Source: Escherichia coli
Lineage (GTDB): Bacteria > Pseudomonadota > Gammaproteobacteria > Enterobacterales > Enterobacteriaceae
Assembly (NCBI RefSeq): GCF_003334785.1
Contig: NZ_QOWV01000011.1
Strand: one strand, 5' to 3'
DNA length: 64,000 nt
Shown in pieces: positions 31,502 to 35,375 of this stretch (positions are counted from its first letter, which is position 1; every line of letters starts with the position of its first letter). The notes below the pieces were generated by a model. That model was not told the origin of the DNA, did not search any database, and was given only the letters and a program-made list of their open reading frames with translations. A program made the position numbers and the translations under genes.

Positions 31502-31533
31502 TCAGTAAACTATCTTCACAATTAATTGAAAAA

Positions 31534-31556
31534 AGCCAGTTCAAATGAACTGGCTT
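31534..31556. terminator. Bidirectional hairpin between convergent luxS and emrB
   Basis: agccagttca-aat-gaactggct perfect stem with A/T runs on both sides. Confidence 0.6.
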
Positions 31557-31564
31557 AGTTGTAC

Positions 31565-33103
31565 TTAGTGCGCACCGCCTCCGCCGCCACCTGCGCCAAA
31601 TGGCGGTTTAGCAAACCACACCAGCCCCAGCAGGACGAGGAATATCCCGGCTGACATCCAGAAGATCTCATTGGCGGAAATAATCAGCCCCTGATTGGTG
31701 ATCTGCTGGGCAATCCAGCCTGATGCCTGCTGTTGCGTCATCCCAAGCCCTTCCAGTTGACTGTACATCGCCTGGGCATTCGGGTTGAACGGGTTTACCG
31801 ACTCAGTCAACTGCGCATGGTGCATCGACTCGCGGTTGGTCCACATGGTCGTGGTTATCGACGTGCCGATAGACCCCGCCAGCGTTCGCGTAAAGTTAGA
31901 GAGGCTCGATGCCGCCGCCAGTCGTTCCGGTGGCAAACCAGACAGCGTAATGGTGGTCAGCGGCATAAAGAAGCAGGCCACCGCAAACCCCTGGATAAAC
32001 TGCGGCCAGGCCGACGCGCCAAAATCCATACCTGGTTCAAAGGTATAGGCACGCCAGTAGAAGCAGACGGCATACATAATAAAGCTGAAGGTTACCAGCC
32101 GCCGCATATCCAGTTTATGCGCGAAGCGGCCGATAATCGGCGACAGGATCACCGGAATAATCCCTACCGGCGCAGAGGCCAAACCTGCCCAGGTCGCCGT
32201 GTAACCGTAGACCTCCTGCAACAACTGCGGCAGCAGAACAATAGCGCCGAAGTAGAGCATATACGCGAGGCTGATACACAAGCAGCCGATGGTGAAGTTG
32301 CGCGACTTAAACAACGACAGATCGACTATCGGGTTATCGTCGGTCAGCTCCCAGACAATCAGGAAGCAGATAGCCACCACCGCCACCACGGTAAGGATGA
32401 TAATTTCCTGTGATGAAAACCAGTCCAGCTCTTTACCGCGGTCGAGCATAATCTGCAGGCTGCCGATACCAATAACCAGCAGTGCCAGCCCCACGGCATC
32501 AATCCGCCGCCGTTCGGTGCGGGTTTCACGTCCGCGCAGAGTTTGCAGTGTCATCAACACCACCGCCACGCCAATCGGCACGTTGATGAAGAATATCCAG
32601 CCCCAGTGGTAATTATCGCTGATATAACCGCCGAGGATCGGGCCGCAAATTGGCGCGACAATCACCGTCATCGACCACAACGCCAGCGCGATCGAGCGTT
32701 TGGCTGGCGGGTAGTTATTCAGCAATAGACTTTGCGAAAGCGGGATCAACGGCCCGGCGACAATCCCCTGAATCACGCGGAAGAAGATCAGCATATTCAG
32801 GCTGCTGGAGACACCACACGCCCACGACGCAATAGCAAAGGCGATGGTGGACCAAAGGAACAGTTTCACTTCCCCGACGCGCTTTGCCAGCCAGCCGGTA
32901 AGCGGGATCGAGATGGCATTCGCCACCCCGAAAGAAGTGATTACCCACGTTCCCTGGCTGAGCGATGAGCCCAGATTCCCGGCGATAGTGGGGATCGCCA
33001 CGTTAGCAATGGTGGAGTCCAGCACCTGCATGAATGTCGCCAGTGACAGCGCAATCGTCATAATGACCAGTTGCGCGCCTTCCAGCGGTTTTTGCTGTTG
33101 CAT
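31565..33103 (-). CDS. emrB: Multidrug efflux MFS transporter EmrB
   Basis: 512 aa from MQQQKPLEGAQLVIMTIALSLATFMQVLD; 14-TMS MFS. Confidence 0.95.
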   Translation of the reverse strand: MQQQKPLEGAQLVIMTIALSLATFMQVLDSTIANVAIPTIAGNLGSSLSQGTWVITSFGVANAISIPLTGWLAKRVGEVKLFLWSTIAFAIASWACGVSSSLNMLIFFRVIQGIVAGPLIPLSQSLLLNNYPPAKRSIALALWSMTVIVAPICGPILGGYISDNYHWGWIFFINVPIGVAVVLMTLQTLRGRETRTERRRIDAVGLALLVIGIGSLQIMLDRGKELDWFSSQEIIILTVVAVVAICFLIVWELTDDNPIVDLSLFKSRNFTIGCLCISLAYMLYFGAIVLLPQLLQEVYGYTATWAGLASAPVGIIPVILSPIIGRFAHKLDMRRLVTFSFIMYAVCFYWRAYTFEPGMDFGASAWPQFIQGFAVACFFMPLTTITLSGLPPERLAAASSLSNFTRTLAGSIGTSITTTMWTNRESMHHAQLTESVNPFNPNAQAMYSQLEGLGMTQQQASGWIAQQITNQGLIISANEIFWMSAGIFLVLLGLVWFAKPPFGAGGGGGGAH

Positions 33104-33119
33104 CACACGCACCTCTGGA

Positions 33120-34292
33120 TTAGCCAGCGTTAGCTTTTACGATATCGTCGATCAGTTTATTGACAGGTGCCAGGCTGATTTCACGCGCGGTGCTTACCGC
33201 TACCGGAGTGGAACGTACTTTATTTGCCAGTACCTGACCGTCACGGTTAGTGGTATTGACGCTCACCAGCGTGGACAAACCGATACGCAGCGGATATTGC
33301 TCCAGCTGTTTCTGGTCCAGTTCGATACGCACAGGCAGACGCTGAACGACTTTGATCCAGTTACCGGTCGCATTTTGCGCTGGAAGCAGTGAGAACGCGC
33401 TACCTGTGCCCATATCCAGACCAACCACTTTACCGGTGTATTTCACATCATCGCCGTAAATATCCGTGGTGATAGTGACCGGCTGACCGATACGCATATT
33501 GGCAATCTGCGTCTCTTTAAAGTTGGCATCCACCCACATATTGGTGGCTGGAACGACCGCCATCAGCGGCGTCGTTGGGCTAATTTGCGCCCCAGGCTGT
33601 ACCGCGCGGCGGGAGACATAACCGGTCATCGGACTGATAATACGAGTACGCTCCAGCGCCAGCCAGGCGTTACGTACTTCGGTGGCAGCCTGTTGCACGG
33701 CTGGCTGATCTTCCAGTTTAGTCCCCAGAATCATCGCCTGATTGGCATTGTATTGTTGAATCGCGACGTCCAGTTGCGCCTGGGCACTGGTGACGGCGTC
33801 GCGGGCGTGTTGCAGCTCTTCGCGACCAATCAGGTTGGCATTGCCCAGCGGCACACGGCGGTTGTAGTCGCTTTGTGCTTTCGCGAGGGCGATTTTCTGC
33901 ACCTCAATATTCGCCTGCAACTGCTTGCTGTTAATCATCAGCTGGTGGGTTTGGCGAACGCTGGAAGCCAGTGCAGTTTTGGCTTTTTCAAACGCCTGGC
34001 GAGCATCTGTCGGGTCGAGAGTGACCAGCACGTCGCCTTCTTTTACAAAATCGGTGTTATCGGCCCAGACTTTCGTCACGCTGCCAGACACCTGAGACAT
34101 AATTTGAATTTGATTCCCTGCCACGTATGCGTCATCGGTTTCTTCGAAGTGACGCAGTACCAAAAACCAATAAATCCCTATCGCTACGGCAATAATTATA
34201 AAGAGCAAGGTGAGAAGGAGGAGCAGACGCTTACGTTTGCCGCTCTTCTTTACCGGTTGCTGCGGGGTTTGAGTCTCCGCATTTGCGCTCAT
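33120..34292 (-). CDS. emrA: Multidrug efflux periplasmic adaptor EmrA
   Basis: 390 aa from MSANAETQTPQQPVKKSGKRKR; HlyD-family. Confidence 0.95.
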   Translation of the reverse strand: MSANAETQTPQQPVKKSGKRKRLLLLLTLLFIIIAVAIGIYWFLVLRHFEETDDAYVAGNQIQIMSQVSGSVTKVWADNTDFVKEGDVLVTLDPTDARQAFEKAKTALASSVRQTHQLMINSKQLQANIEVQKIALAKAQSDYNRRVPLGNANLIGREELQHARDAVTSAQAQLDVAIQQYNANQAMILGTKLEDQPAVQQAATEVRNAWLALERTRIISPMTGYVSRRAVQPGAQISPTTPLMAVVPATNMWVDANFKETQIANMRIGQPVTITTDIYGDDVKYTGKVVGLDMGTGSAFSLLPAQNATGNWIKVVQRLPVRIELDQKQLEQYPLRIGLSTLVSVNTTNRDGQVLANKVRSTPVAVSTAREISLAPVNKLIDDIVKANAG

Positions 34293-34340
34293 ATTGTTCT
34301 CCACGATCTTCTTAACTCATCGGCTGAGCCGACCTGCTTG

Positions 34341-34371
34341 CCAAAAAGGCCAGCATGTTGCGATGCTGGCC
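34341..34371 (-). terminator. Intra-operon hairpin (attenuator or terminator) between emrR and emrA
   Basis: ggccagcat-gttgcg-atgctggcc perfect 9-bp stem followed on the minus strand by TTTTT. Confidence 0.55.
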
Positions 34372-34418
34372 AGTCATTTTTTCTTTTATAAATCTGGATT
34401 TTTGAGCGAGATGACGCG

Positions 34419-34949
34419 TTAGCTCATCGCTTCGAGAACCACACCGTCTTGTTCCATCTGGTCGAGACGGGAGAGCAATTTGCGGGTGATTTGCTCGAGC
34501 TGATCTTTTTCTGTTGTGCTGAGCGCGGACCAGAGTTGATGCAGGCAGTTATGCTGCGGTGGTAAAACCTCGCGCAAAAACTCGTGACCTTTTTCCGTTA
34601 ATTGCAGATGCAGGCAGCGGCGATCGTTATCGCTTTCACGACGTTCGATCCAACCGCGTTTTTCCAGTTCATCGGCAATACGCGTCGCGTTGGTACGGGA
34701 TGATCCAAGAGCACAACTTAATTCAGAAGGCTGAATACTGTGGTTTTCCTGAGACTCCAGCGTAATCAACGCCATAAACAACGTCTCGTTAATCCCCTGA
34801 GCCTTCAGCATTTTATTGCGGTTCTCCAGCAGCTTGCTTTGCATGTGCATGCAAAGACGAGTCAGAAGGATCTCCTGATAAGGAAAATCTTCGTGGCGGC
34901 TGGCGCGAAATTTTAGCATTTGTTCAATGGGCGTAAACGAACTATCCAT
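34419..34949 (-). CDS. emrR: MarR-family repressor EmrR (MprA)
   Basis: 176 aa MarR winged helix, upstream of emrAB. Confidence 0.95.
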
Positions 34950-35039
34950 TTGGGTATGACCTCATTAATTTCAGCCGATATAGTAACGACAGTGACAAAT
35001 AAAGTAAATGTATTGTTTTAGAAAAATGATTCTTGTGGG

Positions 35040-35375
35040 TTATATAATCGCCATCACTTTCCAGGCGAGCCCATAGGCCAGCGCACTAAGCAGTGTTGGG
35101 ATGATAATGCTGCGTGTTTTATAGAAACTGGCACCCAGTACCGCGAAGCCGACCAGCGTGGGCACGAAACGGCGTGTATCGTGCATCACTTCTGGTGCGG
35201 TAGAGACAACCAGCAGAGCGCATATCGAGGCGATGCCAATGGTGTCGAGCAAAATACCTACCGCGCCACGTTTGGTTGGGCGGGCATTACCCACACGCAG
35301 GCGCAGCGGCAAATAGCGGAAGCAATAATTCGCCACGCCAACTAGTAACCCAAGCAGCAGAACCTCATAGCTCAT
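35040..35375 (-). CDS. ygaH: AzlD-like branched-chain amino acid exporter subunit YgaH
   Basis: 111 aa small membrane protein overlapping ygaZ stop. Confidence 0.88.

Follow-up and report, generated by a model that had tools for sequence, protein, structure and literature searches.

The spacer between emrR (mprA) and emrA of Escherichia coli very probably contains a constitutive but incomplete Rho-independent terminator, which lies at the end of emrR, inside the mprA–emrAB operon, and favours repressor over pump mRNA. The window (the whole stretch of DNA that was analysed, 64,000 nt) is base-for-base identical to E. coli K-12 MG1655 over 2810300–2811600; since mprA occupies 2810770–2811300 and emrA starts at 2811427 in MG1655 coordinates, MG1655 position 2811376 is window position 34343. 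The operon lies on the minus strand of the window and comprises (i) emrR, which encodes the MarR-family repressor of the operon (176 amino acids; 34419–34949, stop codon 34421–34419; from the open reading frame list and the RefSeq annotation of matching E. coli genomes); (ii) emrA, which encodes the membrane-fusion subunit (33120–34292, ATG 34292–34290; from the open reading frame list and the RefSeq annotation); and (iii) emrB, the last gene, which encodes the MFS pump subunit (31565–33103; from the open reading frame list, with coordinates converted from the RefSeq annotation). The emrR–emrA spacer is 126 nt long (34293–34418). A 301-nt query across it found matches in 5418 of the 5426 complete E. 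coli genomes, and in 5410 of the 5426 the genes on either side carry the annotations emrR and emrA. Around the hairpin (66-nt query, 34330–34395), 2816 of the 5418 genomes differ from K-12 by 1–3 nt.

The minus strand of the spacer reads, directly downstream of AAAAGAAAAAATGACT, as the 5' arm GGCCAGCAT (34371–34363), the loop CGCAAC (34362–34357), the 3' arm ATGCTGGCC (34356–34348), TTTTT (34347–34343) and then GGCAAG. The terminator hairpin (34348–34371, minus strand), in which the arms GGCCAGCAT and ATGCUGGCC enclose the loop, has nine perfect pairs, six of which are G–C, and a loop of 6 nt; a terminator consensus scan returned the same site. The perfect 9-bp stem, the loop of 6 and the following TTTTT that an earlier note had reported on the minus strand were thus re-read exactly; the range given there, 34305–34418, does cover most of the spacer, but the hairpin itself is confined to 34371–34348. 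The stem starts 47 nt after the emrR stop codon, and the predicted folding energy is −15.5 kcal/mol for the hairpin alone and −16.7 kcal/mol with its flanks. The stems of intrinsic terminators are about 5–14 bp long, with a short loop, and the emrR–emrA element has the expected GC-rich stem and short loop. It also has the U-rich tract immediately 3' of the stem: the T5 tract (34343–34347, minus strand) abuts the stem, UUUUU beginning at the first base past it, and ends 51 nt before the emrA ATG. Such sites are rare by chance. When a strong site is defined as a perfect stem of 9 bp or more that contains five or more G–C pairs, with a loop of 3–8 nt and at least five T in the next six bases, the two strands of the 64-kb window hold four, versus an average of 0.04 over 100 dinucleotide shuffles, i.e. 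strong sites are about 100 times commoner in the window than in the shuffles. Among the remaining three is the known emrB/luxS terminator.

The architecture of the element is conserved in the Enterobacteriaceae. We sampled one genome per species carrying EmrR, which yielded 80 loci; emrA follows emrR on the same strand in 79 of them, the remaining one (L026) ending before emrA, and the spacer measures 114–133 nt, with one exception of 189 nt. The hairpin is kept in all 80 loci, in 49 distinct versions whose energies range from −8.7 to −20.5 kcal/mol (median −15.7 kcal/mol). The loops (3–12 nt) show no sequence relationship. In the stem, the seven lower pairs hardly vary, the few departures being compensatory (G–C to A–U at pair 1, A–U to U–A at pair 5, C–G to U–A at pair 7), while pair 9 covaries (G–C 23, C–G 5, U–A 2, U–G 2). 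Applied to an alignment of 77 Enterobacteriaceae spacers (A1), RNAalifold recovered both the terminator hairpin and a second hairpin located further downstream. Altogether, the spacer shows a mean column identity of 70% in A1, with many invariant positions.

The U-rich tail is also conserved across genera, T75, T77 and T79 being invariant in A1, and its exact composition depends on the lineage. It reads TTTCTGA in 63 of the 80 sequences, that is, in most genera, and TTTTTGG in only eight, namely five Escherichia sequences (the window included) and three Kosakonia sequences (A1 columns 93–100; window 34341–34347). Judging from these tails, the Escherichia U-tract is likely an improvement on the probable ancestral tail, and more polymerases probably leak through the terminator in Salmonella, Klebsiella, Enterobacter and Citrobacter. 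Note that U5 followed by GG is itself a shorter tract than those of the strongest terminators and that most other genera have only UUUCUGA, so that termination efficiency may be moderate and species-dependent. We found no direct measurement of percentage termination at this site, in vitro or by reporters, in the literature. We also considered whether the T5 tail is tied to the presence of ygaH upstream, and rejected this idea: emrR is immediately preceded by ygaH in 34 of the 80 loci, and these are spread over many genera, among them Citrobacter, Klebsiella, Raoultella, Trabulsiella and Kosakonia (loci L001–L079, about 2075–2407; window 35040–35375), with no correlation. The ygaZH–emrR junction is therefore not confined to Escherichia, and its spread bears on the acquisition scenario proposed in PMC12704781.

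Published tables place in vivo RNA 3' ends at the U-tract. In the Term-seq data of Adams et al. 2021, eLife (PMC7815308, Supplementary file 1, LB OD 0.4), a curated 3' end, classed as orphan and supported by 861 reads on average, lies at 2811376(+); we verified the coordinate mapping, which puts it on the final U of the tract, at window 34343. The table gives the region of this site as ATTTATAAAAGAAAAAATGACTGGCCAGCATCGCAACATGCTGGCCTTTTT and then GGCAAGCAGG; the former, which is the published 3'-end sequence, agrees with the window. The 3' UTR of emrR, from the stop codon to this mapped end, is thus 76 nt long (34343–34418, minus strand). The site appears in one of the three growth conditions of the curated list (PMC7815308). 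The independent TRS study (PMC10687069) likewise reports, in several data sets, a 3' terminus at 2811373–2811384, which is labelled an alternative primary terminus within the mprA transcription unit and is associated with the same hairpin at −16.7 kcal/mol. The TRS signal of the site is 0.905, 0.936 or 0.983 depending on the data set, comparable to what the tables of this study list for the terminators of luxS and micA; this signal, R = 1 − local read-through, is a local read-start ratio and not a termination efficiency, and values below 1 (0.905–0.98) imply some downstream reads. Transcript 3' ends are thus present at about 34340, where the earlier note held that their absence would count against a terminator. 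The Rho-region table of PMC7815308 has no entry beginning with 28113, the SMRT-Cappable-seq supplements have none for the emrR–emrA spacer locus, and a TRIC-seq preprint refers to emrA solely as part of an RNA cluster.

The transcripts themselves agree with these ends. Chen et al., PNAS 2025 (PMC12704781) describe the site as a Rho-independent terminator and find by northern blot that the main mprA isoform is a ygaH'-mprA RNA of ~900 nt, not the 3.5-kb mprA–emrAB RNA; the annotated 3.5-kb transcript is cited by these authors but is not the main band. A second start site (5' end) was located by 5' RACE at ygaH codon 49, giving a predicted length of 888 nt (PMC12704781), and our own count from this codon (about 35230) to 34343 is also 888 nt. 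The mprA terminator of Chen et al. (PMC12704781), the 3' end of Adams et al. (PMC7815308) and the element described here are the same nucleotides, with no difference. The literature therefore already contains the terminator, its 3' end and the part that it plays in delimiting the main mprA transcript, with mapping in 2021 and 2023 and a description in 2025; what is added here is minor and consists of the family-wide conservation and covariation, the better U-tract of particular lineages, the failure to find an antiterminator, and some natural variants. As regards the intrinsic terminator that the earlier note had placed inside the operon on the basis of the hairpin, it is borne out by the Term-seq data, the TRS data and the northern blot.

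Because 3'-end sequencing and northern blots are blind to the difference between termination and cleavage followed by exonucleolytic trimming to a hairpin, we considered that polymerase might not stop at the site at all and that the hairpin might be only a processing or stability element. The operon RNA would then be cleaved downstream, for instance by RNase E where the sequence ahead of emrA is rich in A and U, and trimmed as far as the hairpin by 3' exonucleases; the emrR portion would persist as a stable fragment, and the emrAB portion would be degraded more quickly. The stability of the hairpin and the presence of a second conserved hairpin downstream are in line with this scheme. However, a 3' end exactly at the end of a U-tract that abuts a GC-rich stem is the signature of intrinsic termination, a block to exonucleases alone would not need the U-rich tail that is conserved across genera, and the authors of PMC12704781 read the site as a Rho-independent terminator. 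We therefore regard a pure processing or stability element as improbable and infer that the 3' end results from termination rather than trimming.

The 51 nt that separate the U-tract from the emrA ATG are filled by the second hairpin and the Shine–Dalgarno sequence. The second hairpin, GUCGGC-UCA-GCCGAU (34319–34333, minus strand; from folding and A1), would form just upstream of the emrA ribosome-binding site on the read-through RNA; at −7.8 kcal/mol it is weaker than the terminator hairpin, and it is nearly invariant across the 77 spacers, with few compensatory changes. The emrA Shine–Dalgarno sequence, GGAG (34299–34302, minus strand; A1), lies inside the almost invariant block AAGATCGTGGAGAA; columns G118–A124 of A1 are invariant across the 77 spacers, in which the block AAGAUCGUGGAGAA (34297–34310, minus strand), before the emrA ATG, is nearly invariant. 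The second hairpin and AAGAUCGUGGAGAA are conserved beyond what the Shine–Dalgarno sequence alone would need. A consensus scan, as distinct from start-site mapping, found no promoter-like site in the interval 34420–34292 of the minus strand. The terminator thus lies, like a partial terminator, between co-directional genes with no distal promoter-like match in the consensus scan, and since there is no such match between the U-tract and the emrA ATG, emrAB mRNA is expected to come from read-through.

These data lead us to propose the following scheme. RNA polymerase would transcribe the GC-rich 9-bp hairpin and then U5, whereupon most complexes would release the RNA at 34343. The product would be a monocistronic emrR mRNA, about 888 nt long when initiated at the ygaH-internal start and shorter when initiated at the proximal promoter, and its 3' hairpin would also shield it from 3' exonucleases. 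A minority of polymerases would read through, and emrAB mRNA would be produced by those alone, read-through probably being its only source. The same EmrR-controlled promoters would consequently yield far more repressor message than pump message, and the ratio between the two mRNAs presumably matters physiologically. The earlier note had suggested that the hairpin acts as an attenuator setting the ratio of regulator to pump transcript, or as a processing or stability element: the first suggestion fits the published data, at the level of a proposal, and the second is compatible with it.

Read-through could in addition be modulated, for instance through an RNA or protein acting in trans or through changes in elongation under stress, in which case the terminator would constitute a post-initiation checkpoint for EmrAB induction, the change from UUUCUGA to UUUUUGG in Escherichia would have reset this checkpoint, and the conserved spacer, the second hairpin and the invariant AAGAUCGUGGAGAA would reflect a regulatory role. 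We give this extension little credence, marginally less than the processing element discussed above. Still less probable is a dedicated regulated attenuator, with a ligand, leader peptide, small RNA or protein that would switch read-through and provide a second control of emrAB beyond EmrR derepression. A spacer unusually conserved for non-coding DNA, a curated Term-seq site restricted to a subset of the growth conditions and the shifted Escherichia tail are what such a device might produce, but it finds no support in the predicted structures. Partition-function folding with 60–250 nt of upstream RNA gave no competing fold, the pair probability of the hairpin staying at ~0.98, and no antiterminator was found by this method with 60–250 nt of upstream RNA or with downstream context. 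Similarly, an Rfam scan of 33800–35300 at E up to 10 returned no family above noise (wcaG, 20 bits; isrD, 17 bits and E = 2.7, lying over the hairpin; and a miRNA). The emrR stop codon, at its distance of 47 nt upstream of the stem, is too far for ribosome interference. The sole open reading frame over the hairpin, MTGQHRNMLAFLASRSAQPMS (21 codons; 34377–34312, minus strand), spans both hairpins in K-12 and is probably fortuitous: it starts with ATG in E. coli alone, other Escherichia and other genera having CTG or other codons at this position, and it has no Shine–Dalgarno sequence. Thus, folding and the Rfam scan revealed neither an antiterminator nor a sensor domain in the upstream RNA, and no conserved leader open reading frame covers the terminator. 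Finally, the idea that the element is a DNA palindrome bound by a dimeric regulator rather than an RNA structure, to which the near invariance of both arms across genera might point, was rejected as scarcely credible, since the arm spacing varies from 3 to 12 nt, the compensatory arm changes and G–U wobbles are sensible only in RNA, and the tail carries a mapped RNA 3' end.

Three further identities were examined. A REP/BIME element was rejected, the 301-nt and 66-nt queries matching a median of one place per E. coli genome. An Hfq-dependent small RNA derived from a 3' UTR would be indicated by a terminator with a long U tail, of about seven or more U, by a recognised family or by interactome evidence; the emrR terminator has only five U, and its Rfam scan gave no family match. 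A terminator on the plus strand (antisense), which the scan also flagged, is unlikely, as the T-run does not abut the stem but starts 5 nt (AGTCA) after it, and the curated Term-seq tables hold no opposite-strand 3' end at 28113xx.

An incomplete terminator between emrR and emrA has parallels in E. coli. Internal partial intrinsic terminators are found in other operons of this organism, such as T1 between rpsU and dnaG in rpsU–dnaG–rpoD and the rplL–rpoB attenuator. The likeness consists of a hairpin and a U-tract placed between co-directional genes, a lowered expression of the distal genes compared with the proximal gene and the lack of a sensor domain. The difference is that the proximal gene, emrR, encodes the operon's own repressor, so that the terminator biases the autoregulatory loop towards the regulator. 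A second comparison is provided by the window itself. The emrB/luxS intergenic region contains a perfect 10-bp palindrome (31533–31556) between A- and T-runs, which was flagged on both strands and looks bidirectional. Term-seq reports a 3' end for luxS at 2814159(−), about window 31560 (PMC7815308). The emrR–emrA element resembles this bidirectional terminator in being a perfect GC-rich palindrome, A-rich upstream and followed by a T-tract, with the plus strand also flagged, but emrR and emrA are co-directional whereas emrB and luxS are convergent.

The spacer has been rearranged in some natural isolates. E. coli STK78-E (NZ_CP162185.1, L081 300–479) carries a perfect 90-bp tandem duplication corresponding to window positions 34393–34310 approximately; it covers the end of the emrR 3' UTR, the hairpin, T5 and the second hairpin, and would thus put two terminators in series before emrA. 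In the urinary tract infection isolate M45 (NZ_CP080119.1, L082 2660–3427), an IS1B element is inserted directly after the U-tract (window about 34341), flanked by a 9-bp target duplication, CCTTTTTGG. This insertion, which parts the terminator from the second hairpin and the emrA ribosome-binding site, could change emrAB expression. The same strain has TAACC in place of TGACT just 5' of the stem. In genome H22 (NZ_OZ546943.1), the match is also split, inside the 3' arm.

If the emrR–emrA element works as an incomplete terminator, as proposed here, the simple picture of mprA–emrAB as one 3.5-kb message has to be corrected: most transcription from the EmrR-controlled promoters would yield repressor mRNA alone, and pump expression would rest on leakage through the terminator. 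This is relevant to models of emrAB induction, to the reading of RNA-seq data at the locus and to clinical variants of the spacer, such as those with an IS1 insertion or a duplicated terminator.
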